Below are positions 1-64,000 of a stretch of DNA of 64,000 nt, one piece after another (within the stretch, counting starts at the first letter, position 1; each line of letters starts with the position of its first letter). A program made the position numbers and the translations under genes. Location of the stretch: the IMG/VR virus record IMGVR_UViG_2852743531_000003, positions 32,001 through 96,000 of that record. One strand, 5' to 3'. The notes beneath the pieces are model-generated. The model made no database searches, had not been told where the DNA came from, and saw only the letters and a list, made by a program, of their open reading frames with translations. The stretch is from a virus (taxonomy: Duplodnaviria > Caudoviricetes).

Positions 1-179
1 ACTATCGCAAGCCCCGGGAGCCAGACACGATGAAACCAGCATTGCCAGGTGAGCGCCGGAGCGCAAGCCAGATGCTTCGGGATCTGATCTACCACTCGCC
101 GCGAGGATGTGGACAAGCGCACATCCGTGAACGGAAAAGGTATCGGCAATGCAATCGCAAGTCTCATGAGTCGACTTCA

Positions 180-707
180 ATGAAACCGCCATACTCGATC
201 TATCACAGAACATCGCCCCAGATTCTTCGCGATCTGGTCTATTTTACCTCCGGTTTTCTTCTGCCAGAACAGGGCGTGATCTATGGGAAGCCTGTAGCTA
301 AAAAGCCCGTTCACGGAGATACGATCAAACGGGATACCGTAATCGAAATAGGGATAGAAAGAGGAGGCGCCTGCAGCCAGCGCATTCGGGGCAGAAGGTC
401 GTTCTGGTACAGGCGGATCGATCTCGGCTTGCTTGATCCTCCAGAAGCAGGTCACGAGCCGATCCCCATAACGGCTTACCCATTTGATACGTATAACATC
501 CTGCCTGCCATCAACGAATACTACGGGCTGAAACTCGGCCAAAACGATGTCGAAAACCGCGTATGCGGGCCAACGGACGTCGCTTACCTAGTAGCCAGCA
601 GCGGATCGCTGGCGTTTTCGGGGTGCAAGGAACTCCAGTTGACCCTGCCGGATATCGCGAGTCTGGTCGATACAGCAAGTATCGGGGAGTTTGAAGCTGC
701 TGCCTGA
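180..707 (+). CDS. putative jumbo-phage virion (tail/baseplate-associated) protein
   Basis: ORF 30..707, likely start MKPPYS at 180. Motifs YRRIDL, ILPAINEYYGLKL and SLAFSG resemble paralogous jumbo-phage virion protein families. Confidence 0.5.
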   Translation: MKPPYSIYHRTSPQILRDLVYFTSGFLLPEQGVIYGKPVAKKPVHGDTIKRDTVIEIGIERGGACSQRIRGRRSFWYRRIDLGLLDPPEAGHEPIPITAYPFDTYNILPAINEYYGLKLGQNDVENRVCGPTDVAYLVASSGSLAFSGCKELQLTLPDIASLVDTASIGEFEAAA

Positions 708-723
708 AGAAGGCGTCTGCCGG

Positions 724-2043
724 TCAGCTTCCCGAACCGGCCTCCGTATTCCATGCGAGATAGCTGGCCGGCACGGCATTGATGAACGCGCTATTGCCGG
801 GATTGAACGTGACCTGATCCGCGACCTGCCAGGTTGACGCGGCCGGAAACACCTGGGCGGCCTGAGCGTTGTGCCGGCAAATGCTCTGGATGGAGATCCC
901 GCCGACGTTGCCAACGGGATTCTGGCTGTTCGGCGCATCGCCGTTCCACTGCTGGGTGATCGGGTTGTAGAACCAGATGAGCGCGTCGGTGAGGTTGACC
1001 GCCATGCCCACCGTGATGCCCTGCGATGGCGGCTGCGCGCCGGTCGAATCCACGACGGCGCCCAGGTAGTAGACGCCGCTCGTGGCCTTGGCCACGTTGG
1101 TGAACATCATGATGCTGTTCGCGTCTGCGCCCAGCTCGCCTACCGGTGCCCCGAACTGGTTAGTGAGACCAAACCCTACAGCCCCCGTCAGACGGTCATA
1201 GGTCGCCTCGGCGTAGAAGTAGCCCGAAACCTGCCCGTAAGTCGTGCGCGCAGTGAGCCATTCGTTCGCGCTCGCCGCCACCGTCATGTTGCTGTTTGCG
1301 AGTTCCATGCCGTCTGGCAGCAATTCGGGATCAAACGTCGCCGTCACTGTCGGCAGGATTTTCGTACCGCCTCCCGTGCCAGGAATATCGCCACCGGGAA
1401 TCGTTCCGTCATCGACCAGACTCTGGATGAACTGCGAGAGCATCGCGATCTGCTGCTGCAGTGTCGCGATCTGGGCGCGCGCTGCGGCCAACTGGGCTGT
1501 AGGCGTGCCCTTGCTACCCATCAGCGCCTCACGGCTCGCGGTGATCGAGGCATCCTCCTGCGGGCTGATCAGGGTCTTCGACGTCACGGCAAGCGATGTC
1601 ACCGCGCCTGGGTGCACACCGATCGCGTCCTGCACTGCGGCGCTCACCTGCGACTTCACGTAGGTCAGGTCGAGCGAATCCGGCAACGCACCGAGATTGA
1701 CGCCAAGCACGATACCCCGATACGGGATGTTGTTCGCGTTAGGCATCTGGCTGATGTACGTGCTCGGTACATACACCCAGTTGCCGCCCGTGGCCTGCAG
1801 TGAAACGATGGCGGCGCCAGCGGCGACATCATTCTGGTAGTCGGTCTGGGTCAGGTCCTGCGGCTGATAGTAGAGCGTAAAGGGATCGCCGCCGGCCGCG
1901 ATAATATCGACAAGCAGGCGTACCGCCACGCAACTGTACGCCAATGCGGGCGAGATCAGCTGGTCGAATGGTGCAACCAGCGACCACAGACCCGATGCAC
2001 CGACGTTCGGATTCAGGGGTGTCGTCATGGCAGGCTGGTTCAC
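724..2043 (-). CDS. phage virion protein with coiled coil and C-terminal SPRY/ConA-like beta domain
   Basis: 439 aa, start overlaps the stop of the upstream gene. Coiled coil LAAARAQIATLQQQIAML, Gly-rich linker, then SGYFYAEAT...VGFGL...TVGMAVNL, a SPRY-like pattern. Confidence 0.55.
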   Translation of the reverse strand: MNQPAMTTPLNPNVGASGLWSLVAPFDQLISPALAYSCVAVRLLVDIIAAGGDPFTLYYQPQDLTQTDYQNDVAAGAAIVSLQATGGNWVYVPSTYISQMPNANNIPYRGIVLGVNLGALPDSLDLTYVKSQVSAAVQDAIGVHPGAVTSLAVTSKTLISPQEDASITASREALMGSKGTPTAQLAAARAQIATLQQQIAMLSQFIQSLVDDGTIPGGDIPGTGGGTKILPTVTATFDPELLPDGMELANSNMTVAASANEWLTARTTYGQVSGYFYAEATYDRLTGAVGFGLTNQFGAPVGELGADANSIMMFTNVAKATSGVYYLGAVVDSTGAQPPSQGITVGMAVNLTDALIWFYNPITQQWNGDAPNSQNPVGNVGGISIQSICRHNAQAAQVFPAASTWQVADQVTFNPGNSAFINAVPASYLAWNTEAGSGS

Positions 2044-3419
2044 GAAGTGAGCGATGCAGTGTCGGCGGGCTGTACGGGAGCCGGCACACCGGGAAGGGGG
2101 AAGTTTGACAGCGTGACCATCAGATAGCTGATGCCCCCATAACTGGAGACGAGATACAGAATATTGTTGCGCACGAGCTTGGTCATGCCTGCCGGGACGC
2201 TACCGAACTGCGTCAGCGTTTCCGCGGTTTTGAGCATGTCAACGAGGAGCAGCAGGAAGTTTTGCGTGTCGACCGCCATGCGGTTGAAATCCACGCTTTG
2301 CGTGGGCACCGAAAGGATATCCGGAAACACGTTCACGATCTGGAATGCGCCGTTCCTGTTATTCGGTGAACCGCAGCTCACGAGCGCTACGCATTTATAC
2401 GGCACGGTCTGCACACACGCGTTCGAATCAATATGATTCGAACCATACGCCGCGACCTGATTGATCATGGCATTGGCACGGCTGAGGTTGGCGACTGGCG
2501 AGTAAATCCCGCGTTGCTGGCTACGATCCGGAATCGCGAACTGGTCCCACATCGGCACGAGAGTGAATTCCGTTCGTCTGAAAATGTCCGGCAGGATCGT
2601 TTCCCAGTCGGCCTGGTCATGCGCGCTGTTGGCCAGAATGAAATTGATGATGGCATTGGCAATCGAGTCGATATTGTTGCCGGCCAGTCCGTAAATCAGG
2701 ATCGTCCAGTTTGTCGGTATCGTATTGGCCGGGTTATTCGGATCGATGTAATTGAAGCTCAGTGCCTCAATCATTGTTTCCGGATTATTGCCTCTGGCCG
2801 CGTTGACCAGCGCAATGGTATCGGTATAGGACTGCGCCGCGACAAGTGCGGCGACGTTGGAGGAGGTCGTGAAAAAGTCATCGAGATTCTGGATCGGCGG
2901 CACGACGAGGATCGTGTAGTCATCGTACTGTGCAGCGAACGCCGCATCGGTGAACCAGATCCGGATGAGGCAGGTGCTACCCGTCGTGATCGAGCCATAA
3001 ACCGGATCCGTGAGGTTTTCCCATTGCAGCCATTCCGGCACCCAGTACGTGCCGTCGGTCACCATGGTGCCGCACGTGAAATTCTGTGCCTCGGTCTGGA
3101 ACTGGCCCAATAACCCGTCGAGCAGGGTTTGTGCCGCGATCTCGCCGGGGTTCGGGATGGCCTGCGTCTGCGCGTACACCCAAGCGGCGAACCGGAGTAC
3201 CTGTGTCGCGATTCCCGGCGGTGGTTGCACCGTGCCGGTGTCGTCCGCGCTGGTAAAGCTCACGAAGAAGAGGTCTGGACTCGACTCCTCAAAAAACATG
3301 GATTTCGTGATCGCGTAGGTACTCGAGAGTTCCGAAAGCGCGCCGATCACGGCAAGCGTGCCCGCAGGAGCGGCGCTCGCGAGCTTCGAATTATTGATGA
3401 AACCTTTGAGCAGATACAT
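2040..3419 (-). CDS. virion structural protein (phiKZ gp157-like)
   Basis: 459 aa. N-terminus MYLLKGF...IGALSELSSTY and WETILPDIFRRTEF resemble the phiKZ-like virion protein located near RNase H. TATG motif upstream. Confidence 0.65.
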   Translation of the reverse strand: MYLLKGFINNSKLASAAPAGTLAVIGALSELSSTYAITKSMFFEESSPDLFFVSFTSADDTGTVQPPPGIATQVLRFAAWVYAQTQAIPNPGEIAAQTLLDGLLGQFQTEAQNFTCGTMVTDGTYWVPEWLQWENLTDPVYGSITTGSTCLIRIWFTDAAFAAQYDDYTILVVPPIQNLDDFFTTSSNVAALVAAQSYTDTIALVNAARGNNPETMIEALSFNYIDPNNPANTIPTNWTILIYGLAGNNIDSIANAIINFILANSAHDQADWETILPDIFRRTEFTLVPMWDQFAIPDRSQQRGIYSPVANLSRANAMINQVAAYGSNHIDSNACVQTVPYKCVALVSCGSPNNRNGAFQIVNVFPDILSVPTQSVDFNRMAVDTQNFLLLLVDMLKTAETLTQFGSVPAGMTKLVRNNILYLVSSYGGISYLMVTLSNFPLPGVPAPVQPADTASLTS

Positions 3420-4403: not shown

Positions 4404-4454
4404 AACGTTACCGGCTCCTTCCATCGTGTGGTCCGGACTTGATGGGGAGGCGTG

Positions 4455-6059
4455 ATGTACGCAGAAGACGGGTTTCTCGAGAAGGAAGCCAGGGACGCAG
4501 ACGCGGCAGACACGCCCCCGGTCAATTCGTCCAGTCGTCCCGCAGATGACGTCCCGGACAGGCTTGCGAGTGAGGTAACGACCGGTCTCGTTCTGTATAC
4601 GGACGCTGGCAGCAACCCGAATCCGGGGCCAACGGGATGGGGGGTCCACGGCTACCTCTACGCCGACTCCGCGCCGTCGAAAGGCAGCGGCAACAGCCGC
4701 TGGCTGCTCACCCGCAAGGGCTACGTCGAAAAGTACGATGCCGCGAAGCGCGTCGGTCTCACTGAAGTCACGCCGATCCACTATGTCGACGGCTACGGCT
4801 CCATGCTCATCACTGGCGAGCGCAGACCCAGCAACGACATCGGCGAGCTGACGGCCGCCGCGCGCGCGCTCGAGTATGCCCAGGACTTTGACGTGAAGCG
4901 CGTTGTCATCAGGGTTGATAGTGAATATGTACGCCGGGGAATGGAAAGCTGGGTTGACACGTGGGAGAAGAATGGCTGGATCAGACGCGGCGGCAGGCCC
5001 GTTTCCAATGTGGAACTCTGGAAGGAGTTGACCGCTGCGAGAACGCGCCTTCTGGAACGTGGCGTGGACGTCAGGTTCATCTGGGTCAAAGCCCATAGTC
5101 ATCATCTGGGCAACGTGCTGGCCGACAAGCTCGCCACGATCGGCATTGCGCTGTCCGCCCAGGGACTTCCCAGAAACGAGATAAGCTCGGCAGCCGCACA
5201 GGGATACTGGAAATACGATACCGGCCGTCATCCGATGCTCGCCAACCGGTGTCTGTACTTCAACAGCGTGGCACAGTACCAGCAGCCTGGCGTCTACTAT
5301 CTCGGAGATCATGGCAAGGAAGACGAGCTGCTCGGCAAGCGCATCAGCGACGGCGCGCATACGGTCACGAGACTCAGCGCACCCGATCCGGCAATCGAGC
5401 TCATCCGCAACTACACCACGGAACTGGCGGCCGGCCTCGACTCGATCATCATTGTGCGTCTGGACCAGCTTTTCAGTCCCACTACCCACCGCGAACTGAT
5501 TACCTGGGGCACAGCTGCCCTGCTGAGGCCTAACACATGGAGGCTGGACCTGAACTGCCTCGATGAAGAGCCCGGCGGCCATACCCACAAGCCGCTGTCG
5601 CGGGAATGCCGGCCGCCGCGCATCGCCATGCGTGCGATCGAAGCGATATCCGGCCTCATTGAGCGTCTGCGCCTGTATGAAGCGCATGATGCGTCCATCA
5701 CCACCACAGACCTTACCGGCCATCTCTACGAAACGAAGGAAAAACCCGCTGCGAAAAAAGGAGAGCCACAGGTCGTTATGGAATTGCGGCCAGAGTATGG
5801 CGTCGGCTTTGCCTCGATGAGCGTTTGCGCAAATTATCACGCAGCCGACAGCGTAGCTTCGATTCCCCTGACCCTGACGCTTGGCATCGACCTGCTCAAT
5901 CGCAACTCGCTCAAGCGTCTGGAGAAGTCCAGCCCCACGGTAACGCTGATCACATGGCCCGAATCAGGGCGATCCTTCCGGTATGCGACGGTGGTCAAGG
6001 CGGGCGAGGACATCTGCATCAGCGCCGGCACGTATTCGAACCTGCGGGTGATCCCCTGA
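4455..6059 (+). CDS. ribonuclease H (RNase HI fold) with long C-terminal domain, phiKZ gp155-like
   Basis: LYTDAGSNPNPGPTGWG, NDIGELTAA, VDSEYV, NVELW and WVKAHSHHLGNVLADKLA match RNase HI catalytic motifs. GGAGG RBS upstream. Confidence 0.9.
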   Translation: MYAEDGFLEKEARDADAADTPPVNSSSRPADDVPDRLASEVTTGLVLYTDAGSNPNPGPTGWGVHGYLYADSAPSKGSGNSRWLLTRKGYVEKYDAAKRVGLTEVTPIHYVDGYGSMLITGERRPSNDIGELTAAARALEYAQDFDVKRVVIRVDSEYVRRGMESWVDTWEKNGWIRRGGRPVSNVELWKELTAARTRLLERGVDVRFIWVKAHSHHLGNVLADKLATIGIALSAQGLPRNEISSAAAQGYWKYDTGRHPMLANRCLYFNSVAQYQQPGVYYLGDHGKEDELLGKRISDGAHTVTRLSAPDPAIELIRNYTTELAAGLDSIIIVRLDQLFSPTTHRELITWGTAALLRPNTWRLDLNCLDEEPGGHTHKPLSRECRPPRIAMRAIEAISGLIERLRLYEAHDASITTTDLTGHLYETKEKPAAKKGEPQVVMELRPEYGVGFASMSVCANYHAADSVASIPLTLTLGIDLLNRNSLKRLEKSSPTVTLITWPESGRSFRYATVVKAGEDICISAGTYSNLRVIP

Positions 6060-6111: not shown

Positions 6112-6798
6112 TTAGTCCTGCCGGAACTGCGCATCACTCAGACGCTCGGCCTTGACGTAGTGAACGTGCCAGTACGGATCGTCCAGTCTTTCAACGCGCA
6201 CATGACCGCCGGACGACGGCGCGTGAACGAACTTTCCGTGGCCGAGGTATAGACCCACGTGGGAAATCCCCCGTCCGTAGGTATGAAAGAAGACGAGATC
6301 ACCCAGCTTCAGGTTACTGCGCCCGACCTGCTGTCCCGCTGTCGCCTGGCTCGCCGCCGTACGGCCAAGCTGCAGCCCGGCCGCATGGCGCATCACGTAC
6401 TGCACAAAGCCGCTGCAATCGAATCCGCTCAATGGAGAACTTCCGCCATACCGATACCGCACACCGACGAGGCTCATAGCTTTTTCCTGCACCCGCTCGA
6501 GCGCCGTGGTGGACTCATCGGCCACCTCAGTCTGCGGCTCGGCGGTTGCCACTGGACTTGACCCCATGTCCTGTACAACGAGAGGCGTCGAATCCTCGTC
6601 GGGGGAGTGGACAAAACCCCGCTTTGGCTGCGGGTGCGCGTCGAGCGCAACGCGCCGGTGTCCCGGCTCACGATGCAGGTTGTGCGGGCGGTGATGCGCC
6701 CAGGCAGGTGCGGCCGTCGTGGCTGCTGCCGTGACAACAATAGCCGCGCCGGCTTTCGAAATAAATTTTGCCGTATTACCTGGAAGAGTCAGCCGCAT
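6112..6798 (-). CDS. NlpC/P60 (C40) peptidoglycan endopeptidase with signal peptide
   Basis: YRYGGSSPLSGFDCSGF, GDLVFF, SHVGLYLG and FVHAPSSG give the Cys-His-His triad. Ala-rich signal ending AWA. Confidence 0.9.
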   Translation of the reverse strand: MRLTLPGNTAKFISKAGAAIVVTAAATTAAPAWAHHRPHNLHREPGHRRVALDAHPQPKRGFVHSPDEDSTPLVVQDMGSSPVATAEPQTEVADESTTALERVQEKAMSLVGVRYRYGGSSPLSGFDCSGFVQYVMRHAAGLQLGRTAASQATAGQQVGRSNLKLGDLVFFHTYGRGISHVGLYLGHGKFVHAPSSGGHVRVERLDDPYWHVHYVKAERLSDAQFRQD

Positions 6799-7935: not shown

Positions 7936-9450
7936 ATGACCCAGGACATTGATCTTCGGTCGAGGATGACGCCTGCGCCCAACGTCAAGCTCATGATCAA
8001 TCTCGGCGCGTGTCTGGACATCCCGACCGGGCACTACATCGAGGGACGACGCGGCGAATCGATCCTCAATGGCGGACTCGGATTTATCACCGGCATCGTT
8101 GGCATCGGCAACAACTTCAAATCGACGATCGAGCGCTTCATGATGCTCACCGCCATGGCGCGCATGATGCATTCCACCGCCAAGACCTATGACACCGAGA
8201 CCAACATTCATGAAGAGCATCAGGTCAAGGTTGCCGCGAATATCGGCGATTTTCATGACGAAAACATTCTGCGCAACGGCCGCTGGATCATTACCGACAA
8301 AACTGTCTATGTGGGCGACGAGTGGTATCGCATTCACAAGGAGGAACTGGAGGAGAAGGGAAAGCGCCGTGACATCGCTGTGAACACGCCGCACTGGAAC
8401 CGCGAGCATTCCGGCCCCTTCCGGATGCTCATCCCGACCTTCACGGAAATTGATTCCTTCAGTGAATTCGAGACCAGCAACATCATCGAGATGCAGGACG
8501 ATATCGAACTCGGCGAGGCGAAGGGCAATACCATCGACATGCAGCAGGGGCGCGTGAAGAACCGCATCCTGATGGAAGTGCCGCGCACCCATACCAGTGT
8601 CTACGACTATCTTCTGATGACGGCCCATATCGGCAAGGTGATCGACCTGGGCGGGCCACCCGGTGCTGGCGTTCAATCCAGCATGCTCAAGTATCTGCGC
8701 AACGGCGACAAGATCAAGGGCGTACCGGCCAAGTTCACATTCCTCACGCACAACTGCTGGCACGCATTCAGTGCCGCGCCCCTGCTGAACCAGGGAACGA
8801 AAGGGCCGGAGTATCCGCGCAACAGCAGCGATGACATGGCGCACGATACCGACCTGAATGCCGTACAGATCCGTAACCTGCGCGGCAAAGCCGGGCCGTC
8901 GGGCATGCCCGTCACCCTCATCGTGTCGCAGGCCGACGGCGTGCTGCCGTCGCTGACCGAGTTTCATCACATCCGGGAAAACGCCCGCTATGGGCTGGAA
9001 GGCAGCAACACCAGCTATGCGCTCGCGCTCTACCCCGACGTGAAGCTGCAACGCACCTCCGTGCGCGCCCGGATCGATGCCGATCCTCTTTTGCGGCGGG
9101 CGCTTGCGATCACTTCGGAGATGTGCCAGATGGGCTATCTCTGGCACTCCCAGCCGGAAAAGTACCGCATTGGTCCGAAAGCGCTGTATGAGAACCTGAA
9201 GTCGCAGGGCTACGACTGGACGGTTTTGCTGACCACACGCGGGTGGTGGACCCATGAACCGGGGGAAGCACGGGAGCTCCCCTACCTCTCGACGATGGAT
9301 CTGCTCCGCATGAGCCTGCCCGTTGGCGATCCCAAACGTTACGTGCCGTACTGGCTCGAGGAGGACAGGAAGACTGTCAGGCCGCGATACCAGGCATGCA
9401 TGGAACAGTACCGCGCACGGGACGCAGAACGCGCAACCGTGCATGCGTGA
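7936..9450 (+). CDS. uvsX: UvsX/RecA-like recombinase ATPase (phiKZ gp152-like)
   Basis: Walker A GIGNNFKST, YDTE, Walker B-like EIDSFS, RGKAGPSG. GGAGG RBS upstream. Confidence 0.8.
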   Translation: MTQDIDLRSRMTPAPNVKLMINLGACLDIPTGHYIEGRRGESILNGGLGFITGIVGIGNNFKSTIERFMMLTAMARMMHSTAKTYDTETNIHEEHQVKVAANIGDFHDENILRNGRWIITDKTVYVGDEWYRIHKEELEEKGKRRDIAVNTPHWNREHSGPFRMLIPTFTEIDSFSEFETSNIIEMQDDIELGEAKGNTIDMQQGRVKNRILMEVPRTHTSVYDYLLMTAHIGKVIDLGGPPGAGVQSSMLKYLRNGDKIKGVPAKFTFLTHNCWHAFSAAPLLNQGTKGPEYPRNSSDDMAHDTDLNAVQIRNLRGKAGPSGMPVTLIVSQADGVLPSLTEFHHIRENARYGLEGSNTSYALALYPDVKLQRTSVRARIDADPLLRRALAITSEMCQMGYLWHSQPEKYRIGPKALYENLKSQGYDWTVLLTTRGWWTHEPGEARELPYLSTMDLLRMSLPVGDPKRYVPYWLEEDRKTVRPRYQACMEQYRARDAERATVHA

Positions 9451-9934: not shown

Positions 9935-10477
9935 ATGATCGGCCACACTGCGCTCAGCCACACCGCGATTCGCTCGTTCGACGAAGCGGTCGTCGTCGCG
10001 GGTAGCCGTACCTTCAACGACGACCGCGTTTTCGCCGAACTTCTCGAGTCGTGGCTTGACAGGAACGTGCGCCCCGGCGCATCGGTGATCTTCATCTCGG
10101 GCAAGGCTCCCAGCGGTCCTGACGAGATGATCATCCGCTGGTGCCGTGCCCGTGGTCAGGCGTGGACCGAATATCCTGCGGACTGGGAGAACCTGGGCGC
10201 GCCGAACTCCTACATCAAGAAGAGCGCCGTGACGGGCAGACCCTACAACGCGCGCGCAGGCCATCAGCGAAACCGCGAGATGGCCCGCGTGGCCACACGC
10301 GTCGTCTGTTTCTGGGATGGCGTCTCGCCCGGCACCCGCAACATGATCGAGGAGGCCGAAGACCACCAGATCAAACCCTCCATCTTTCTGATCAACCGCG
10401 ATCCGGAGCAATGGAATGAGCACCGCAATGGACAGCCCACCCGGAAAAAGAAAGGAGACAGAGAAGTTCCTTCTTGA
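9935..10477 (+). CDS. SLOG-superfamily (YspA/DUF2493-like) nucleotide-binding protein
   Basis: VVVAGSRTFND, ISGKAPSGPD, AGHQRNREM and FWDGVSPGTRNMI motifs. Likely start ATG 9935. Confidence 0.75.
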   Translation: MIGHTALSHTAIRSFDEAVVVAGSRTFNDDRVFAELLESWLDRNVRPGASVIFISGKAPSGPDEMIIRWCRARGQAWTEYPADWENLGAPNSYIKKSAVTGRPYNARAGHQRNREMARVATRVVCFWDGVSPGTRNMIEEAEDHQIKPSIFLINRDPEQWNEHRNGQPTRKKKGDREVPS

Positions 10478-11111
10478 GTATATCGGCAAGCTTATTCCCG
10501 GCTCTGACAGCAACGTCAGGATCTACCGGGCGCTCTTTGCCGGCATGGACGATGAGGCATTCCACGCCTTCATGGGCAGGCTCGAGCGCCGTGAAATCCG
10601 GCTTGCCATCGTGGCGCCCAACCTTTCGAAGGAGAAAGTCACCGTCGCCAACAACCTGGCGATCGCCGACGAGCTCGGCCACAATTTTTTCGAACGCATC
10701 TGGATCGACAACGGTAACGATGCCCCGCCCTATCTCTCGCCGGTCCGGTATCTGGTGTGCGATCTCACGCTGTGCCGCCAGGCGCAGCTGCTCGTGAAGA
10801 AGATCTCGATTCCCGAGGATAACCGCAGCGTCGACGATCTCACCGGCCAGCCTTCCGGCAAGTCGGAAGCGAGCAAGATTTCGTTTCCTGAAAACCAGGT
10901 GCTCGCCGCCTTCCATCTGGACAAGACCCTGCACGAGCTGATCACCCTGCGAGGTGGCGACACCCAGGGATTCAACGCCATGAACGAGAGCTTCGCCCGC
11001 ACGGGCGGCGCCTCGCAGAAGGCGATCGAACCGTTCCGCGGTGGCGTGAAGTCGACCCAGGCGCTGCGCGTCATGCTGCTGTCCATGCACCTCGATGCTG
11101 AGGGACTGTAA
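10416..11111 (+). CDS. virion RNA polymerase beta subunit, C-terminal piece (phiKZ gp149-like)
   Basis: QAQLLVKKISIP...DDLTGQPSGKSEASKISFPE...LHELITLRGGD aligns by eye with the RpoB C-terminal region (HLVDDK...TQQPLGG...QRFGEME...QEMLTVKSDD). Confidence 0.8.
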   Translation: MSTAMDSPPGKRKETEKFLLEYIGKLIPGSDSNVRIYRALFAGMDDEAFHAFMGRLERREIRLAIVAPNLSKEKVTVANNLAIADELGHNFFERIWIDNGNDAPPYLSPVRYLVCDLTLCRQAQLLVKKISIPEDNRSVDDLTGQPSGKSEASKISFPENQVLAAFHLDKTLHELITLRGGDTQGFNAMNESFARTGGASQKAIEPFRGGVKSTQALRVMLLSMHLDAEGL

Positions 11112-48940: not shown

Positions 48941-48958
48941 TAACCCCAACCACCGCAA

Positions 48959-52111: not shown

Positions 52112-52258
52112 GGTTGTGATCCTGAAATGAAATGCTATGGCTGGAAAGCGATGCGGCGCATCATATAAATTTGTGCGCTTCGTAATCCTCAGTAATTCAC
52201 GCGATACGGCATCGCGGGTCACAGGGCGGGCCGTTTCTTCTGGACGAGGGCGTGGAGA

Positions 52259-53215: not shown

Positions 53216-53282
53216 GCGCCGCCCCCTTGCCCAGGCTTCGTTTCTGTCGCCCTTCGCGACGCTCTTTGTCCGGGATACGAGC

Positions 53283-55925: not shown

Positions 55926-55943
55926 AGCACAGCGGAGATTTTC

Positions 55944-57653
55944 ATGGCCGACATCTTATCCGGTGCCGTCGAGCTGCCGGTCGGCACCGACGGCGGCGTC
56001 CCGATCAGGGGTCCTGACAACAGTCTGTGGGAGATATGGGCATACCAGAATCTCTGGCTCGGCGCCGCGGGCACTAACAAGTACATCCCGAAGGTCAACG
56101 ACTACGTCTGTGACTACACCATCAACCAGTGGTGGCGCGTGACGCTCATCGACCCCATCACGTATGTACCGACACTGGTGCCGCTCACCACCACGCCCAA
56201 CGCGGCCATGACCGAAGGAGACCTGCTGCAGGGTGTAGGCCCGGGCACACTTGCCGACACCTTTCGTGTGTATCTGGACACCAGCGTCATTCCCTTCATT
56301 CTGGCCGTCGATGGCCGACTCTGGTACCCGGGGCCCGATGTGGCTTCGGTCAAGCTGTTCACGGGGTCGGATTTCACGACCAACGAAAACTGCGTCAGCG
56401 GCTACTACGATCAGTCCGGCACGCTCGTCTCCCAGGCCATCACACTCGCGCCCGTCACAGTCCAGTTTCCCGATGGTTCGACCGGCACCGTTTCAGGTGT
56501 GCCGGTTTGCTATACGAACGTGCGTCTGGCCGACGCCACGCCGGTGACCGCCGTCGCCTATTCATCGACAGGCGCGGTCGTCTCCATCCGCCAGTTGCTG
56601 ATCCAGAATACCGGCTGCATCCGCCTGGCCGACTCCGGCGTGAAGTATGTCGTCGGCATCGAGCTCAGGACACCCTTCCTGTCGAGCTCAGACCCGACGC
56701 TCATCCAGTTCCCCATTAACGTGATCCTCGCGAACCTGAACCTGATGGGCATCGTGCGGTACAGCGACGGCACGAGCGCCATGCTGCCAGTCGACAACAC
56801 AAAATTCCAGATACTCGGCTTCAACGCCTTCGTCTCGACGATCGTCGGGCAGTCGTTTGACGTGGTGCTCAAGTACAACCTTTCACCCGACGAAGCGGTC
56901 TTCAATGCGAACTCGGTCGATCAGGTCGGCTTCATCACGCGGGCCTACCGCATGACGTCCATCAATTCGGCCGGCGCCTACGCGCTGAAGCTTCTCGCGT
57001 TTCCCGTGTGGCGTGACAGCATCACGGGTTACCGGCTCGACTGGTTCCTGTACAACCTCGATCGCAGCACGTGGTGGAACGTCACGAGCCTGGTGCAGTT
57101 CTCGCCGGCGTTCCCGCCATTCCAGCCGCTGCAATATGGTGTCCAGCAGGACATCAACGCGCAGGTACAGTTGAACAAGGTGGATCCCAGCTTTACGAAC
57201 TATCTGTTCAGCGCAACCGTGGCCATCACCCTGCTCGGGCCCGGTATGCAGGATTCCCCGTGGCAGATCCAGTTCGAACCCGGGCAGATGCCCCCTTACG
57301 GTCCCGGCAACGTCGCGGCCGTTAATGAAGTTCAGGCCAACCAGTACACCATCAATATCGCGAGCGGCTACCGGAAGCAGGCTGACTGGCTGCAGGCCCT
57401 CTACTACAACACGCTGCCTCTCACCGACCCGGCCACCGAGGCGCAACTGCCCGTGCCGACGCATTTCGCCATCCAGATGCCAGATGGCAGTGCTCCGATC
57501 GTGTGCCCGATTTCGCAATGGGCGTCGACCTTCAGCACAGGCGTGACGATTCCCGACGACAGCACGCTCTATGTGACCTTCTACATGCGCACGACGACAA
57601 ACGACCTGCAGCTGAGCATCTGCGGCCTGCCGGTGCGCTATCCAGGTACGTAG
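55944..57653 (+). CDS. virion structural/baseplate protein (phiKZ gp26-like)
   Basis: 569 aa beta-rich protein with KYIPKVNDYV. Lies between the gp27-like gene and the terminase. Confidence 0.7.
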   Translation: MADILSGAVELPVGTDGGVPIRGPDNSLWEIWAYQNLWLGAAGTNKYIPKVNDYVCDYTINQWWRVTLIDPITYVPTLVPLTTTPNAAMTEGDLLQGVGPGTLADTFRVYLDTSVIPFILAVDGRLWYPGPDVASVKLFTGSDFTTNENCVSGYYDQSGTLVSQAITLAPVTVQFPDGSTGTVSGVPVCYTNVRLADATPVTAVAYSSTGAVVSIRQLLIQNTGCIRLADSGVKYVVGIELRTPFLSSSDPTLIQFPINVILANLNLMGIVRYSDGTSAMLPVDNTKFQILGFNAFVSTIVGQSFDVVLKYNLSPDEAVFNANSVDQVGFITRAYRMTSINSAGAYALKLLAFPVWRDSITGYRLDWFLYNLDRSTWWNVTSLVQFSPAFPPFQPLQYGVQQDINAQVQLNKVDPSFTNYLFSATVAITLLGPGMQDSPWQIQFEPGQMPPYGPGNVAAVNEVQANQYTINIASGYRKQADWLQALYYNTLPLTDPATEAQLPVPTHFAIQMPDGSAPIVCPISQWASTFSTGVTIPDDSTLYVTFYMRTTTNDLQLSICGLPVRYPGT

Positions 57654-57720
57654 CGGACACAGAGCCGGCATGCGGCCCCCTCCCCTGCGAGGGAGGCAAG
57701 CCTCAAGCGGAGGCGACCAG

Positions 57721-59967
57721 ATGATCCTCTTCCTCGACGACTTCAGACAGTATCCGCAGGCGATCATCGACACCGACACTTCCAACCAGAGCTTTCTGAG
57801 GCTTGCGACGATCTACCGCCGGATGTCGGTGCACAACAATGCGTTTCTCCTCGCCCTCATCAACCCGGATCTTCAGGGCGTGGATCCCTTCTCCGCCGAT
57901 CTCACGCTCGAACAGATGGCTGCAATCGCGCTCGAGTGCAAGTCAAACCCCTTCTATTTCTTCCGCGAGGTATGCCGTATCCCGGTGAGCGGCACCAACG
58001 AGGCAGTCCCCTTCCAGGCCAACCGCGGCAACATCGCGCTCATCTGGTGTTTCTTCAATCACCTGATGATCTTCCTGATGATGATCCGGCAGACCGGCAA
58101 GTCTGTGGCGGTCGACTCGCTCATGGTTCTGCTGCTGAATTTCATCTGCGTGAACACCGAGCTCAACCTGCTCACCAAGGACGAGGTCCTGCGCCGCACG
58201 AACGTCGACCGCGTCAAGAAGATCATCGACGAACTCCCTCCCTACCTCCAGCAGCGCACCCGCCAGGACACCCACAACGGCGAAGAGATCACGATCAACC
58301 GCCTTGGGAACAAGTACAAGACGCACGTGCCCCAGGGTTCCGAAAAGGGTGCCTACAAGGTCGGGCGCGGCCTTACCACCCCCGTGATACAGATCGACGA
58401 GGGGCCGTTCCAGCCGAACGTGAGCATTGCCGTTCCCTCGGCGCTTGCCGCGCGCAACGCGGCGGTCGACGCCGCGCGTGCGAACGGCTCGCCCTATGGC
58501 GTGATCTTCACCAACACCGCGGGCAAGATCGACGACCGTGATGGCGCCTTCATCTACCGGATGCAGGGCAGCGCCGCACCATGGACGGAGAAATTCTACG
58601 ACGCGGAAAACGCCGAAGAGCTCGAGCGTCTGGTGCGAAAGTCCTCGCATGGGGAAAAGACCCCGGACGGCAGCCGGCGCAGCGTGTACCGTGTCAATAT
58701 CACGTTCAATCACCGACAGCTCGGCAAGACGGACGGATGGTTGCGCGAGAAGATCGAGGAGGCCGCCGTAACCGGCGATGATGCGAACCGCGACTTCTTC
58801 AACATGTGGACCTCCGGCACGCAAACGCATCCCCTGCGGCGCGAGATCCTCGAGCTGATCGTGAGAAGCCGGCAGGAACCGAAACACATGGAGATCAGCC
58901 GGGAAGGCTACATCACACGCTGGTATGTGCAGGAGCGCGAGATCGAGGCCAGAATGCGCCTGGGCCGCTTCGTGATCGGACTCGATCCGTCCAACGCTTC
59001 GGGCGGCGACGACATCTCTCTCGTGGCACTGGACATCGACACCCTCGAAGTGATCGCCGCCGGCACCTACAATGAGACCAACATCCTGCTCTTCTGCGGC
59101 TGGGTAGCCCAGTGGCTTATCCGCTGGGATACCACGACACTCGTCATCGAGAACCGCAGCCTCGGCCAGGCGCTGATCGACTACCTGCTCTACATGCTGC
59201 CAGGCCACGGCATCGACCCGTTCCGGCGGCTCTTCAACCGCATCGTCCAGGAGTACGACGAGCTCCCGGCCCGCTATCATGAAATTCAGGTGCCCATGGG
59301 GCGCCGCCCGACGGATATCTACACACGCTACAAGAAGGCGTTCGGCTTTACGACCTCCGGCGGCGGCACCTATGCGCGCAGTGAGCTCTACTCGGCCTCG
59401 CTGCAGCTCGCCGCAAAACGTGCTGGCTCCAATGCCCACGATCCGGTGCTCATCCAGCAGGTCGCGCACCTGACCACCCGCAACGGCCGTATCGATCACG
59501 AAGAAGGGCTGCACGACGACATGGTGATTGGATGGCTCCTCGCGCACTGGCTGCTGACCCGCGGCAAGATGCTGTCCTTCTACGGCATCGACGATCGCCG
59601 CATCGGCTCGGCGCTGAATGCCGGAGGGCAGGAAACCATGATCGACCATCAGCGTCGCCGCGAACAGCAGGCGATCCAGGATGAAATCGGGCGTCTGGCC
59701 GACGAGCTCTCACGCGAGCCCAATGAATGGGTCGCCGCGCGCATCGAGCATCAGATGCGGCTACTCGATCGACGGATCGTGCTCGAGGAAGGAGAGATCT
59801 TCAGCATGGACACGCTTATCAACCAGGCCAAAGAGAAGAAGCGCGAGCGACGGCTCCTGCGCCGCGCAGCTACGCCGGCGGATCCCCCCAACCCGTCGCC
59901 CCTGGGATTCTTCAGCGATACCCCGCCCGGTGCCAACATCCACACCCTCAAACGTGGTGGCTGGTAG
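57721..59967 (+). CDS. terL: terminase large subunit (phiKZ gp25-like)
   Basis: Walker A IRQTGKS, Walker B IQIDE, nuclease IGLDPS and HDDMVIGWLL. GGAGG RBS before ATG 57721. Confidence 0.9.
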   Translation: MILFLDDFRQYPQAIIDTDTSNQSFLRLATIYRRMSVHNNAFLLALINPDLQGVDPFSADLTLEQMAAIALECKSNPFYFFREVCRIPVSGTNEAVPFQANRGNIALIWCFFNHLMIFLMMIRQTGKSVAVDSLMVLLLNFICVNTELNLLTKDEVLRRTNVDRVKKIIDELPPYLQQRTRQDTHNGEEITINRLGNKYKTHVPQGSEKGAYKVGRGLTTPVIQIDEGPFQPNVSIAVPSALAARNAAVDAARANGSPYGVIFTNTAGKIDDRDGAFIYRMQGSAAPWTEKFYDAENAEELERLVRKSSHGEKTPDGSRRSVYRVNITFNHRQLGKTDGWLREKIEEAAVTGDDANRDFFNMWTSGTQTHPLRREILELIVRSRQEPKHMEISREGYITRWYVQEREIEARMRLGRFVIGLDPSNASGGDDISLVALDIDTLEVIAAGTYNETNILLFCGWVAQWLIRWDTTTLVIENRSLGQALIDYLLYMLPGHGIDPFRRLFNRIVQEYDELPARYHEIQVPMGRRPTDIYTRYKKAFGFTTSGGGTYARSELYSASLQLAAKRAGSNAHDPVLIQQVAHLTTRNGRIDHEEGLHDDMVIGWLLAHWLLTRGKMLSFYGIDDRRIGSALNAGGQETMIDHQRRREQQAIQDEIGRLADELSREPNEWVAARIEHQMRLLDRRIVLEEGEIFSMDTLINQAKEKKRERRLLRRAATPADPPNPSPLGFFSDTPPGANIHTLKRGGW

Positions 59968-59978
59968 TGCGACTGTCA

Positions 59979-60010
59979 CGGCAGACAAGCCGCGTCGGGC
60001 TTTTCTGCCG
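59979..60010. terminator. hairpin between convergent terL and small exported protein gene
   Basis: CGGCAGACAAGCC/GGCTTTTCTGCCG stem with one mismatch. Confidence 0.55.
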
Positions 60011-60037
60011 CTATACCGCTAGTGCACGTACGAGCAC

Positions 60038-60301
60038 TTACTCGCCGGCCGGGCCCTGCGCTCGCTTCGCCGGGTGCTTTTTGTGATGGTGGTGAGCGCC
60101 CTTGCTAGGGACACCCTCATGAGCAGGCTGCGCGTCCTGATCGACTACAGGCGGCTGGGCCTGGACGTCCCTCGCATGTTGCACAATCTGTGCAGCGACA
60201 TTGTCGTCATGGGTCATGACAATGCCGTTTTCCGTCGTTTGTGCCGATGCTGCGCCTGCCACGAACAACGAAGCGAGCAGCGCAAAAGAGATTTTTTTCA
60301 T
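60038..60301 (-). CDS. small exported protein (host-type)
   Basis: Signal peptide MKKISFALLASLFVAGAASAQ and a His/Lys-rich tail, a style common in Burkholderia. Confidence 0.75.
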   Translation of the reverse strand: MKKISFALLASLFVAGAASAQTTENGIVMTHDDNVAAQIVQHARDVQAQPPVVDQDAQPAHEGVPSKGAHHHHKKHPAKRAQGPAGE

Positions 60302-60632
60302 GGTCAGTTTCTTCACGTTGACAATTGGTCGCGAGCCGCTCCACAAAAGTTTGTCACGGCCCGCGCCCGGATTATCCATCAGGGCGTATAGAAAGTGGAA
60401 CGAGATTCAGGTCAGGAATCGCGTCGTCAGGCAGCGTCCGGTCTCATTTATTTTGAGACAGTTGCGTCTTGACAAGAAATGACAATTCAAAGGGGTCCGA
60501 ACCGTTGATCCTGACACGATCAAACGTTATAAAGTCAGGTGGACCAATCGCGGTCGCAGTCACGGCTCATCTCAGATTGCAGTTCTACCCTCCGGGCCGT
60601 GCCTTCCTTAAATTCCAGGGAGCCACACGCCT

Positions 60633-63101
60633 ATGGCGGACTTGCTGAACGCATTGCAATCCATATCGGGACGGCAGGCGTATTTCCTCGAAGTACCCGG
60701 CACCGACACTGCGTCGGCACTGTCGGTCGTGTCATTTGACGCCAATGAGATGATGGGGGCGCCCAATGAAGTGAGCATCGAGATGACCCATCCGATGCAG
60801 CTCTCACGAGCGGACTATCTGAATCGCGATGCGGTCTTCACGATCGTGCCCGACGATGGTGTGCCAAAAAAATTCTCGGGCTACATCGAGCGCTTCTCGA
60901 CGATCCAGACAACAAAGGACTTCACCCGGTATCGGGCCGTACTGAAATCGCACTTCGGGCGCCTGCAGGCCGTCACGAACACGCAGGTCTTCCAGCACCT
61001 CACCACCCCGCAGATCATCAGGAAGATCCTCAGCGCCCACGGCATCCGGGATCACCAGATGTCGTTCCGGCTGCGCGGCAAGTACATGAAGCATCTGTGG
61101 CGCTTCCAGCACCAGATGACGGACTATGACTATGTGCACATGCTCATGGAGAAGGCCGGCATCTACTGCTATATCGTCGAGTCCGAATACGGCGACCAGA
61201 TCGTCTTTGGCGACGACATCGACCACTACATCTACGATCCGCGGTTGATTGTTCCTTACCGTGAAGCGGCCGGCCTCGAGGCGGGTGGCGTGGAAGCGGT
61301 AACGTCCATCAGCACGCACTCCGTGATCGTGCCGCAATCCGTCGTCGTTGCCGATTACAACCCTGAGCAGGCCTGGGAACGTCTTCGCGACCAGGCCAAT
61401 ATCGCACCGCAGGACGAGACCACTTATGGCCAGAGCTACGTCTATGGTACCAATCATCTGGACCAGGATGGCGCGAAGTGGGAAGCGCAACTGCGTCACG
61501 AGGCAGCCATCGCCCGCCAGGTAATCTTCGAAGGCAAGAGCACCGTTTTCGCTCTGCAGTGCGCCCGTGTGCTGGAGACCGACATCGCGCTGCCCGATGC
61601 GCCGAAGGGCGAAGTGATCGTTGAGATCAGCCACAGCGGCGCGCGCGACAAGGCCTATTCGAACAGCTACAAGGCCATCCCGGCCGACCGGCGCTTCCGG
61701 CTCCAACTGGAGCCGGCGAAGTGGGCAAAAATCGCGGGCACACTCAGTGCACGCGTTTGCAGCCCGGACAAGTACACGTATGGCTACCTGAATTCGGTTG
61801 GTTACTACGTGGTACGGCTCGATGCCGACTTCGGAGAGTGGCCCCGCGGTGGCGAGAGCGTGCCGCTGCGTCTGGCAAAGCCGTTTGCAGGCAAGCTGCA
61901 GACCGGCATGCATTTCGTCGCGCTGGATAATGACGAGGCAAAGATCTCATTCCGAAACGGGGATCCCGACAAGCCCGAAATCAGCGGCTTCCACCACCAC
62001 AGCCAGGCGCGCGACCTTGTCACCAACGATCGTCGCTGGCTCTCGCGCAACATGATCCGTACGCAGAAGAACAACAAGCTGCGCATGGAGGACTGGGAGG
62101 GCCAGGAAGGCATCAAGCTGAGCACGGAGCACTCGGGCAAATCACAGCTCAATCTGGGCTATCTGGTGAACCAGAAGCTCGAATACCGCGGTGAAGGCTA
62201 TGAGCTCAGGACATCGGGATACGGCGTAAACCGCGCAGGCAAAGGGCTCTATCTGACGGCGTACGATCGCCCGGCCGCCAATGGCGCCCAGCGCGAGATG
62301 CAGGAGTCGATGGCCCAGCTTGAAAGCGCACTGGAGCTCGCCAAAGCGCTTGCCAATTCGGCAAGCAGCGCGAAAGCGGAGCCTGCCGACACAACCGCCC
62401 AGCAGCAGGTCAAGGACGATCTCGACGGCCTGAAGAAGCCCGGCCTCCTCATGAGCACGCCAGCATCGGCGGGTCTCGTGGCGGCCGGGGGGATCCAGTT
62501 TTCGGCGAAAGACGACATCGCGGGCGTGGCCGGCCGGAATGCTGACTTCAGCGTTATGAAGCGCTTTACTGCGGCGGTGGGCGAAAGGATATCGCTCTTT
62601 GCGCAAAAGCTAGGCATCAAGATTTTCGCAGCGAAAGGCCCTGTTGAGTTTCAGGCGCAGGGCGGCCCGATGTCGCTCACTGCGGCCAAGGACGTCAACC
62701 TCGGCAGCGTCAACGGGAAGGTCAACCTGACAGCGGCCAAGGAGATCATCCTTGAGTGCGGCGGCGCTTTCATCCAGATCAAGGACGGCAGCATAACACT
62801 TGGCGGTCCGCTCGATCTTTTCATCAAGACCATCACGATCCAGAAGCAAGGCACAGCTTCGATGCAAACGGCGATGCCGACACTACCGAAGTTTATTGAA
62901 CACCTTTTCGATCGCCCTGTTTGGGTCGTAGACGAACGTGGATATTCGATTCCGAATCGGCCTGTTCGAGTCCATTTGAAGAACGGCGAAATCTTGAACG
63001 GAAAGACCGATCACGACGGAATTACGCAGCTCGCCATCAGTGACGAAGCCGACGTATTGAAAATCGAAGTGCTGAAAAAACTCAGCGGGAAAAACGTATG
63101 A
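60633..63101 (+). CDS. vgrG: type VI secretion system spike protein VgrG with DUF2345-like C-terminus
   Basis: gp27/gp5-like layout. GMHF...GDPDKP.I, GIKLSTEHSGKSQLNLG, GYELRT and SLFAQKLGIKIFAAKGPVEFQAQ. Confidence 0.93.
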   Translation: MADLLNALQSISGRQAYFLEVPGTDTASALSVVSFDANEMMGAPNEVSIEMTHPMQLSRADYLNRDAVFTIVPDDGVPKKFSGYIERFSTIQTTKDFTRYRAVLKSHFGRLQAVTNTQVFQHLTTPQIIRKILSAHGIRDHQMSFRLRGKYMKHLWRFQHQMTDYDYVHMLMEKAGIYCYIVESEYGDQIVFGDDIDHYIYDPRLIVPYREAAGLEAGGVEAVTSISTHSVIVPQSVVVADYNPEQAWERLRDQANIAPQDETTYGQSYVYGTNHLDQDGAKWEAQLRHEAAIARQVIFEGKSTVFALQCARVLETDIALPDAPKGEVIVEISHSGARDKAYSNSYKAIPADRRFRLQLEPAKWAKIAGTLSARVCSPDKYTYGYLNSVGYYVVRLDADFGEWPRGGESVPLRLAKPFAGKLQTGMHFVALDNDEAKISFRNGDPDKPEISGFHHHSQARDLVTNDRRWLSRNMIRTQKNNKLRMEDWEGQEGIKLSTEHSGKSQLNLGYLVNQKLEYRGEGYELRTSGYGVNRAGKGLYLTAYDRPAANGAQREMQESMAQLESALELAKALANSASSAKAEPADTTAQQQVKDDLDGLKKPGLLMSTPASAGLVAAGGIQFSAKDDIAGVAGRNADFSVMKRFTAAVGERISLFAQKLGIKIFAAKGPVEFQAQGGPMSLTAAKDVNLGSVNGKVNLTAAKEIILECGGAFIQIKDGSITLGGPLDLFIKTITIQKQGTASMQTAMPTLPKFIEHLFDRPVWVVDERGYSIPNRPVRVHLKNGEILNGKTDHDGITQLAISDEADVLKIEVLKKLSGKNV

Positions 63102-64000
63102 TCAACAACAACCCGTTCCAAATTCCGGAAGTATCTCAGACTGACGCAGATACGTTCCCGCCATTTACACGGCCCGTTCCTGCTGAGAATAGCGAGTACC
63201 GTAACGATCTTTACGGTACTCCGTTCGCTTACGAGTCAGGATTCGCCTGTACCGTTACACTTGCCGACGAGTTACTGGAAAAGCTTCGGAAGAACGGGGA
63301 GGACACCGAGGTGCAGCATCGCGACGACGTACCACTGACGCCAACAGCTGCCCCGGCATCGTCGAATGGACAGCCACCGCAAAGCTCTCCAAAGTCTCCA
63401 CCCTCTACTGGAGCACCGGCAGCACCTAACAAGAGAAACAAAAATGATGCGAATGATCATCAACAACTTATAAATAAATTAAATAAGAACCCGCACGTCG
63501 TTGAATTTAAAGGTGCGGTTCTAGATAGGAACGAACGTCTTAAGATTATCGCCGCTGTCGCAATGTGCGAAAGTGGGCGAGATCCATTTGGCGCCGAAAA
63601 TACCGACCAGGAATTTGTTGGCCGAAAAGACGGAAACAAGGGAATTGAAACTAGTTATTCACGTATTGTTCATATTGGGTTGTCGTATGGAATTATTCAA
63701 TTTACACAAGATGGCGGCGCCCTCGGAGGGGTGTTAAAGAAGTGTAATGAAAAGAATCATGAAAAATTCGTTGAGATTTTTGGTGACAACTGGCAAGAAT
63801 TGCTCACCCTAACGAGCCCCGGAATTTTTGTCCCCGGTGTTGATTATATATCTGGCCTTGACCACTGGCACGCGATCTCAAAAACCAAGGAAGGTGTCGA
63901 GATTAGCAAGTCGGCGTCAAAAGGCCAATTGCCAGTTGGGCGTGAAATTCGCGGGAAGCGCGTCCAGCCAATATCCGTACAGGTTGGTGGGGTGAAGCAG
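63098..64000 (+). CDS. putative T6SS lysozyme-like peptidoglycan hydrolase effector (partial, runs off window)
   Basis: ATGA overlap with the vgrG stop. Manual translation gives MINNNPFQ...KIIAAVAMCESGRDPFG...HIGLSYGIIQFTQDGGALG. AT-rich. Confidence 0.65.
   Translation, partial: MINNNPFQIPEVSQTDADTFPPFTRPVPAENSEYRNDLYGTPFAYESGFACTVTLADELLEKLRKNGEDTEVQHRDDVPLTPTAAPASSNGQPPQSSPKSPPSTGAPAAPNKRNKNDANDHQQLINKLNKNPHVVEFKGAVLDRNERLKIIAAVAMCESGRDPFGAENTDQEFVGRKDGNKGIETSYSRIVHIGLSYGIIQFTQDGGALGGVLKKCNEKNHEKFVEIFGDNWQELLTLTSPGIFVPGVDYISGLDHWHAISKTKEGVEISKSASKGQLPVGREIRGKRVQPISVQVGGVKQ

Follow-up and report, generated by a model that had tools for sequence, protein, structure and literature searches.

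The question raised by this locus is how the core genes of a nucleus-forming jumbo phage came to lie beside catabolic and type VI secretion system (T6SS) genes of bacterial type. The window, i.e. the whole 64,000-nucleotide (nt) stretch of DNA analysed here, comprises bases 32001-96000 of the 140,992-bp IMG/VR record IMGVR_UViG_2852743531_000003, which is classed as 'provirus' and has a CheckV completeness estimate of 53%. Its contents are best explained as the part of a jumbo phage of the Chimalliviridae (phiKZ-like, nucleus-forming) that encodes the structural and packaging functions and the virion RNA polymerase (RNAP); the phage gene set looks complete and is intact. An earlier note on the window had proposed a phage core resident in a bacterial replicon, either temperate, plasmid-like or domesticated. 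Our results indicate that the window probably belongs to a Chimalliviridae phage-plasmid, a low-copy extrachromosomal replicon of a Paraburkholderia-like host. Judged from sequence, the phage-plasmid state appears clear for a relative in Paraburkholderia adhaesiva, and we infer it for the window's own strain. In the main text of the literature searched, a plasmid lifestyle is not described for this phage family, which is regarded as strictly lytic.

The rep-parAB module and its relatives

Downstream of the window, three genes lie on the same strand of the record:

Record 135755-137005: Rep, 416 amino acids (aa), assigned by homology
Record 137257-138276: parB, with matches to ParB PHROGs and to ParB_N
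Record 138249-139451: parA, phrog_164 (E 2e-55)

By homology, these genes form a parA-parB-rep operon of the Burkholderiaceae megaplasmid type. Rep showed 54-59% identity to 'Replication protein O' of Caballeronia, Burkholderia and Paraburkholderia plasmids and matched none of 50,697 phage records. ParA was 66% identical to the ParA of Caballeronia and Burkholderia megaplasmids. Among the 184 phage records that matched ParA, the best 25 were 29-35% identical and included N15, PY54 and phiKO2, and no phiKZ-like phage was among these 25.

Relatives of the element were identified with the terminase large subunit (TerL). The closest phages by tblastn were FLC9 (55.7%) and RP12/RP31 (53%), followed by PA1C, PhiPA3 and 201phi2-1. 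In isolate genomes, TerL was 90% identical in P. adhaesiva ZD32-2 (on a 284,264-bp contig), 63% in Caballeronia arationis and 61% in Paraburkholderia sp. BCC1886 (on a 286,074-bp contig); a Sulfuriferula metagenome-assembled genome (49%), a fragment in P. unamae and a further 36 IMG/VR loci also carried TerL relatives. In agreement with the earlier note, the element is no free lytic genome but resides in the genomes of isolates. The TerL tree, also suggested there, was built by a quick method from 41 rows, leaving out one TerL fragment, two duplicate loci and two loci shorter than 600 aa. Every Rep-bearing element fell in one 14-member clade with 100% support in the Shimodaira-Hasegawa-like approximate likelihood-ratio test (SH-aLRT), a clade that also included two Rep-less complete records. 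The tree placed this clade in a wider group with FLC9 and RP12 (98% support), with PhiPA3 and 201phi2-1 outside; it did not resolve the inner branching of the group.

The record was collinear with contig 5 of P. adhaesiva over 49.7-185.5 kb at ~80% nt identity. The module occupied the corresponding position in P. adhaesiva (98%, 91%), in BCC1886 (46%, 44%, 48%) and in the metagenome record G046 (ParA 90%, Rep 65%), which is 278,988 bp long with terminal repeats and a CheckV completeness of 100%. The distance from the module to TerL was ~48 kb in both the window's record and G046. In at least three elements with differing cargo, rep-parAB was flanked by phage blocks and lay ~130 kb deep in the phage part. 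The search for Rep was extended to 15 more genomes or records. Among the 13 virus records, two contained it, namely G046 and the 79,841-bp fragment G058, and it also occurred on five small contigs of C. arationis with no demonstrable link to the phage contig. No match to Rep, ParA or ParB_N was obtained in G047-G050, four relatives that are complete or nearly so. Thus, the module would be old in its TerL clade yet losable, or would have been acquired more than once. As a separate observation, the synonymous divergence (dS) of parA was 0.30, compared with ~0.75 for the backbone, and parA was as similar as stated above in G046 although the TerL of G046 was only 61% identical; parA seems to have been exchanged between elements or to be unusually constrained.

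The assembly of P. adhaesiva comprises five contigs in all, of 3.38, 1.91, 0.91 and 0.49 Mb and 284 kb. The last and first bases of contig 5 mapped 15-27 bp apart, collinear and inside one gene, in 3 of the 26 relatives searched, and contig 5 is therefore a closed circle. Its phage-homologous part covers 49.6-266.2 kb (~217 kb), and the host-like rest amounts to ~67 kb. Beyond the par-rep module, the phage part contains an RNAP subunit, a DNA polymerase part, internal head proteins and a tail fibre, and its capsid block adjoins the 266-kb end. The host-like DNA at 1-49.6 kb carries a T6SS cluster with TssM, TssF, ClpV, an OmpA-type protein and a VgrG paralog, and that at 266-284 kb carries DUF3597, an amidohydrolase and a major facilitator superfamily (MFS) transporter; both parts matched chromosomal contigs of related species at 70-82% identity. 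A ParB_N match was found on every one of the five contigs, and the sole match of contig 5 lay inside the phage part. Contig 5 is a 284-kb circular replicon on which no partition and replication module was detected other than that of the phage backbone.

In contig 11 of BCC1886, an 823-codon open frame ran across the joined ends, hinting that this contig is circular too; the frame had no homolog in the local comparison set. Its regions at 1-15 kb and 259-286 kb held one-strand gene arrays with weak paralogs (25-33%) of the tube-position protein and the prohead protease, together with several open reading frames (ORFs) of 700-1359 aa.

Sequencing reads also bear on the state of the element. Two public runs contained every sampled word of window 55000-64000, and one 96,257-nt Logan contig per run matched window 37001-57000 with zero differences. 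By its coordinates, this contig extends from ~2.3 kb left of the record start to about window 61900, within vgrG. Its depth was 114.4 in run X1, where three other contigs had 129.5-132.6, and 56.2 in run X2, where three other contigs had 52.2-57.6, which corresponds to about one copy per chromosome. No RNA data set was listed among those containing this stretch.

Proposed lifestyle and competing explanations

In the proposed phage-plasmid, Rep and ParAB would replicate and segregate the genome in the quiescent state. The host RNAP would express rep, par and the cargo (a vgrG-effector-immunity set for T6SS competition, sugar-acid catabolism and DNA methylation), and the expression of this cargo would repay the host for carriage. 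The phage genes of Chimalliviridae are transcribed by their own virion-packaged and non-virion RNAPs; in the plasmid they would be mostly silent until switched on, whereupon a normal nucleus-forming lytic cycle with virion release would follow. A bolder extension, which we put forward tentatively and would not expect to hold in full, is that the whole Paraburkholderia/Caballeronia clade of nucleus-forming jumbo phages is temperate and lives as ~280-kb single-copy plasmids. Latency in this clade would need no classical repressor, the phage genes being readable only by phage RNAPs that are absent in the plasmid state, and the headful-sized genome would carry tens of kb of host cargo between strains in virions, up to a complete T6SS cluster.

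Several points weigh against the phage-plasmid reading. The element is known here from DNA alone, and the functions of Rep and ParAB are predicted from homology. The module is absent from two complete close relatives and can therefore be lost. Convincing iterons or parS sites were not found, the repeats in the parB-rep spacer being 14-nt two-copy families that may be due to chance, and promoter and terminator matches did not exceed those in shuffled sequences. No repressor or lysis-lysogeny switch was identified. The major capsid gene falls, by synteny, in a block beyond the record and is seen in relatives only, where it is 53% identical to that of FLC9/RP12/RP31-type phages. The three contigs used as the depth baseline are not assigned to any replicon, and the two runs probably both derive from the source strain and are hence not independent. 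In addition, the record is a 141-kb 'provirus' piece, so the element may be integrated in a larger replicon in the source strain.

Such an integrated prophage, in a chromosome or megaplasmid and with rep-parAB as a passenger or as the recipient's own module, is the alternative that survives best, and we consider it unlikely. The class 'provirus', shared with the second such record (G005), means that both were cut from a longer contig; the depth of ~1x and the chromosome-like DNA (70-82%) on both sides of the P. adhaesiva phage part also fit integration, as does the start of the record, which coincides on the phage map with the start of the P. adhaesiva cargo. The integrase that the earlier note had suggested looking for was not found, as the tyrosine integrase domain PF00589 had no match in the record or in the BCC1886 contig, in a search that did not include serine recombinases. 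G005 gave one weak PF00589 match (35 bits) outside the region aligned to the record, and P. adhaesiva contig 5 carries three tandem tyrosine recombinases at 57.7-60.1 kb, in a 3.6-kb backbone insertion that is missing from the record. An integrated prophage also fits poorly with the position of rep-parAB deep inside the phage part and with the closed 284-kb circle and its single ParB. No empty site was found in the relatives: the left and right flanks of the contig 5 phage part matched different chromosomal contigs and never adjacent ones, a non-decisive result. Of the residence in a bacterial replicon proposed earlier, the plasmid-like option was retained, while the view of the phage as a guest in such a replicon was not, since the element has its own rep-parAB.

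A domesticated or defective element that makes no infectious virions, such as a giant tailocin, a gene transfer agent (GTA)-like particle or a plasmid with captured phage genes, appears improbable; of these, domestication, GTA-like particles and giant contractile tails had been considered in the earlier note. The ratio of nonsynonymous to synonymous divergence (dN/dS; Nei-Gojobori, record versus P. adhaesiva), a comparison that the note had called for, was defined for 69 of 71 ortholog pairs and had a median of 0.11, with 0.074 for TerL and 0.088 for the large RNAP subunit at a typical dS of ~0.75. These values show that genes for virion, RNAP and replication functions evolve under purifying selection. 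Selection of this kind cannot separate a phage from a domesticated particle, and a remnant in P. unamae shows that decay does occur in the lineage. However, genes with which a tailocin could dispense are intact and constrained, including those for chimallin, PhuZ, the DNA polymerases, both RNAP sets, terminase, protease and, in relatives, the capsid. The P. adhaesiva element has 110 backbone proteins with lengths of 120 aa or more. In a comparison with the record, 83 of them gave a single unbroken match with at least 85% cover and 16 gave no match (strain-specific ORFs). The remaining 11 showed extra paralog pieces or partial cover; these were mostly small ORFs, and one was cut at the record end. 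No long gene among the 110 was split by a frameshift.

Another alternative, which we consider very improbable, is co-assembly of the host with a strictly lytic jumbo phage that persisted in it as a carrier-state or pseudolysogenic infection. The available text of two studies (PMC12768965; bioRxiv 10.1101/2024.12.31.630880) describes lytic Chimalliviridae as common in isolate assemblies and proposes a carrier-like state. The C. arationis and BCC1886 contigs would agree with this, having no host-like flanks in a gene-by-gene comparison limited to the other elements. In the latter study, as far as its available text goes, a screen for plasmid genes gave only ParB hits without a ParA partner and no replication protein (bioRxiv 10.1101/2024.12.31.630880), whereas a full parA-parB-rep set is present here. 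The genomes reported in the available text as BAPS or 'persistent virulent phages' resemble the present element in being Chimalliviridae in isolate assemblies, but they are described as separate contigs, while here host cargo is contiguous with phage DNA on one circular contig and the depth equals that of other contigs in two runs.

A chimeric assembly of phage and bacterial DNA, to which the deviating GC content of the islands and the end of the Logan contig inside vgrG, a multi-copy gene, might point, can be practically dismissed, since the TerL-vgrG junction recurs in G005 (~80% nt) and in the P. unamae remnant, and since the single Logan contig crosses this junction by its coordinates and both runs contain the words sampled around it.

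The proposed phage-plasmid can be compared with known systems. It shares with FLC9, RP12 and RP31, Chimalliviridae of Burkholderiales that we take to be lytic, similar TerL (53-56%), window 20262-22532 (48%) and, in the relatives, capsid (53%) proteins, as well as the multisubunit RNAPs, sheath, giant tail lysin, protease and a similar local gene order; it differs in that these are isolated phages, none of which has a T6SS VgrG, and in its Rep, which is unmatched in any phage record. With the phage-plasmids P1, N15, PY54 and phiKO2 it shares a phage genome with plasmid replication and partition genes in a low-copy extrachromosomal state, and its ParA is ~30% identical to those of the last three. 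Their virion and replication machinery is unrelated, their size is 42-60 kb among the matches listed as against ~280 kb here, and the rep-par module here is of the megaplasmid type of the host family. To our knowledge, no phage-plasmid is known with a chimallin nucleus or with multisubunit RNAPs of its own. A circular jumbo prophage, pBtic235, is described for Bacillus thuringiensis in the available text of one study (PMC9700832). Our literature searches, which did not cover supplementary contig lists that might include these Paraburkholderia contigs, found no description of a nucleus-forming phage-plasmid. In the available text of two recent reviews (on jumbo phages, 2026, and on nucleus-forming phages, 2025), temperate or lysogenic members are not discussed, these words being confined to titles in the reference lists, and the sole in-text 'prophage' is Pf1. 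If the phage-plasmid reading is true, it would add a lysogeny-like lifestyle to the Chimalliviridae, which are otherwise treated as obligately lytic, and would provide a tractable system for the silencing and reawakening of a phage that relies on an injected RNAP and a protein nucleus. It would also bear on the assumed safety of these phages in therapy and biocontrol, and would open a route for very large cargo (T6SS weapons, catabolic genes) among soil and plant-associated Burkholderiaceae.

Phage genes of the window and the record

PHROG profiles were scanned against 40 window ORFs and Pfam profiles against 10, with the following phage genes found:

30-707, plus strand: virion structural protein (phrog_1037, E 2e-12), with weak similarity to tail-fibre paralogs just upstream of the window
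724-3419, minus strand: two conserved phiKZ-like genes, phrog_3241 (E 5e-54, dN/dS 0.08) and virion structural protein phrog_3293 (E 1e-123, dN/dS 0.07)
4452-6059, plus strand: RNase H-like ribonuclease (phrog_3265, E 3e-107; also phrog_531)
6112-6798, minus strand: NlpC/P60 peptidoglycan peptidase, a small tail-associated lysin (PF00877, E 2e-31; tail-protein PHROGs)
7936-9450, plus strand: UvsX-like recombinase (phrog_97, E 1e-36)
10416-11111, plus strand: small beta-type subunit of a multisubunit RNAP (phrog_3233, E 7e-70; 96% aa identity to the P. adhaesiva element)
20262-22532, minus strand: conserved virion protein (phrog_3181, E 2e-205; dN/dS 0.033)
22605-29306, minus strand: 2233-aa giant tail protein with a C-terminal transglycosylase domain, a tail lysin (phrog_3201, E 3e-265; phrog_4067, E 7e-45)
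29360-31015, plus strand: RNAP beta-type subunit, 551 aa (phrog_2986, E 4e-193)
31071-35498, plus strand: RNAP beta-type subunit, 1475 aa (phrog_3148, E 0)
38003-38935, plus strand: virion structural protein, the last backbone gene ahead of island 2 (phrog_2926, E 2e-79)
44533-45288, plus strand: prohead maturation protease (phrog_3014, E 5e-80)
48959-49933, minus strand: tube-position virion protein, 324 aa (phrog_3185, E 4e-102; dN/dS 0.007)
50006-52222, minus strand: tail sheath, 738 aa (phrog_3242, E 3e-201; dN/dS 0.069)
52259-57653, plus strand: three conserved phiKZ-like genes, phrog_3227 (E 8e-58), phrog_3184 (960 aa, E 2e-259) and virion structural protein phrog_3430 (E 2e-164)
57670-59967, plus strand: TerL (phrog_2, E 1e-49; tblastn as given above)

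The phiKZ-like gene classes named in the earlier note were thus present and intact, with strong PHROG or Pfam matches, and its placement of these proteins with phiKZ-like phages agreed with TerL tblastn, the tree and the PHROGs. The label 'tube' for the protein at 48959-49933 is our assumption from its position. The protein at 20262-22532 was considered as the major capsid protein and rejected, as its tblastn matches are annotated as virion structural protein and the capsid gene sits elsewhere in relatives. In megablast, 24 kb of sequence gave a single match to phage records, of 128 nt, to FLC9. The homolog of window 55944-57653 in P. adhaesiva contig 5 (130.3-133.3 kb) was interrupted by an opposite-strand 334-aa ORF, which may be a homing-endonuclease or intron-type insertion; the window copy is whole.

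The GC content of the window ranges from 0.52 to 0.65, and that of the whole record is 0.595. The earlier note had taken GC richness as a sign of residence. The first 50 kb of Burkholderia phage FLC9 have a GC content of 0.563, and because this relative, presumably lytic, is also GC-rich, the base composition is uninformative about residence in a host and this argument was dropped.

In the rest of the record, four tail-fibre-like paralogs (record 24778-31980) and baseplate, SbcC-like and RuvC-like genes lie upstream of the window. Downstream of the vgrG island are phrog_2921, PhuZ, DNA polymerase, chimallin, two further RNAP subunits, SbcD and a helicase. Of the markers that the earlier note had proposed to seek there, chimallin, PhuZ, presumptive non-virion RNAP subunits and rep/par were found. 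The PhuZ tubulin matched phrog_4733 (E 3e-77), and chimallin, at record 113430-115508 (window-relative 81430-83508, past the window), matched phrog_4795 with E 2e-68 over 649 residues and had homologs in four of five related genomes or records. The record contains five RNAP subunits (at window 10416, 29360 and 31071 and at record 115681 and 128566), and a sixth is at 198201 in P. adhaesiva; our assignment of individual subunits to the virion or the non-virion set is presumptive.

Chimallin was far more diverged than its neighbours, with 58% aa identity to P. adhaesiva against 83-90% for the flanking genes, and 50% to G005. Its dN/dS was 0.38 and its dN 0.29 (record versus P. adhaesiva), which might point to diversifying selection or to a replaced shell gene. 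In G005, two adjacent backbone blocks, corresponding to record 12.6-31.9 kb and 32.7-48.3 kb (within 12608-48346), were each inverted in place.

Host-like islands of the window

Three host-like islands coincided with the exact breakpoints of the alignment between the record and P. adhaesiva. They are strain-variable cargo within a conserved backbone, because all three are missing from the closest relative, P. adhaesiva, and G005 lacks the sugar-acid cassette and the methylase island. Their features are as follows:

16787-19944, plus strand: island 1 (GC ~0.52), a 456-aa ORF and a 606-aa N6/N4 DNA methyltransferase, absent from the P. adhaesiva and G005 elements
38941-44136: island 2, probable sugar-acid uptake and catabolism, covered without difference by the 96-kb Logan contig, with four genes named by Pfam:
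38941-39801: GntR/FCD regulator
39635-41332: IlvD/Edd-family dehydratase
41342-42721: flavin adenine dinucleotide (FAD)-dependent oxidoreductase
42805-44136: MFS transporter
44180-44250, minus strand: tRNA gene with an odd anticodon loop (two-base anticodon in ARAGORN; Rfam RF00005, 35.1 bits, above threshold)
60633-63101, plus strand: island 3, gene 1, T6SS-type VgrG (PF05954 Phage_GPD, E 3e-51; PF13296 T6SS_Vgr, E 1e-30; PF10106 DUF2345, E 3e-40)
63098-64000 and on to ~64450, plus strand: island 3, gene 2, 450 aa, putative effector of the GH46/lysozyme superfamily of glycoside hydrolases (GC 0.48)

The pair of genes in island 1 had been described as a restriction-modification pair. Its methylase half was confirmed, as the 606-aa ORF at 18124-19944 contains the N6/N4 methylase domain PF01555 (E 2e-10). 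The restriction partner was not, since the 456-aa ORF had no Pfam, PHROG or PDB match and gave only weak Atlas leads to type II restriction enzymes (score 0.79-0.80), under the level at which a family is named.

The catabolic cassette of island 2, as described in the earlier note, proved real. It was confined to the window's element among the three compared, and its DNA had a match in just one of 31 related genomes, at 72% identity. The 3' end of the tRNA gene marks the right edge of the island, and the G005 alignment restarts exactly at 44180. A direct repeat of the tRNA 3' end was sought at the far side of the island, and just short repeats at chance level were found.

Island 3 separates the terminase gene from the backbone gene that follows. 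The earlier note was right in seeing a true T6SS VgrG there, but not in its view that phage DNA runs into host DNA at this gene: because phage genes pick up again ~3 kb past vgrG, in an arrangement that G005 shares from TerL to vgrG, the gene is an internal island and not a phage/host border. The window VgrG was 82% identical in aa to the G005 copy and 72-79% to nine chromosomal P. unamae copies, and had no match in phiKZ-like phages. The start of the effector-candidate gene overlaps the vgrG stop codon. Homologs of its 450-aa protein were Burkholderiaceae hypothetical proteins, one of them labelled 'lysozyme family protein', and distant ones carried LysM or GH46 (PF01374) domains. PDB sequence searches with this protein gave nothing useful. 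In its structure model, with a predicted local distance difference test score (pLDDT) of 80.7, the nine best Foldseek rows were GH46 chitosanases with E values of 0.0045-0.1, none at or below 0.001. The next ORF, of 175 aa, has an N-terminus that by eye resembles a signal peptide and is a candidate immunity protein. Island 3 may thus be a module of VgrG, a periplasm-acting glycoside hydrolase and an immunity protein. It resembles the T6SS vgrG-effector-immunity islands of Burkholderiaceae in the VgrG domain set, the overlapping downstream gene and the small protein with a putative signal peptide that follows. It differs from them in its place among the backbone genes of a jumbo phage, a relative of which carries a whole T6SS cluster on the same replicon.

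In contig 43 of P. unamae (locus L006), a chromosomal-looking T6SS cluster at ~48-62 kb was followed by a C-terminal fragment of TerL (aa 601-765), a vgrG of the window type (79%) and a truncated phrog_2921 gene. This relic is evidence of DNA exchange between phages of this kind and T6SS loci.

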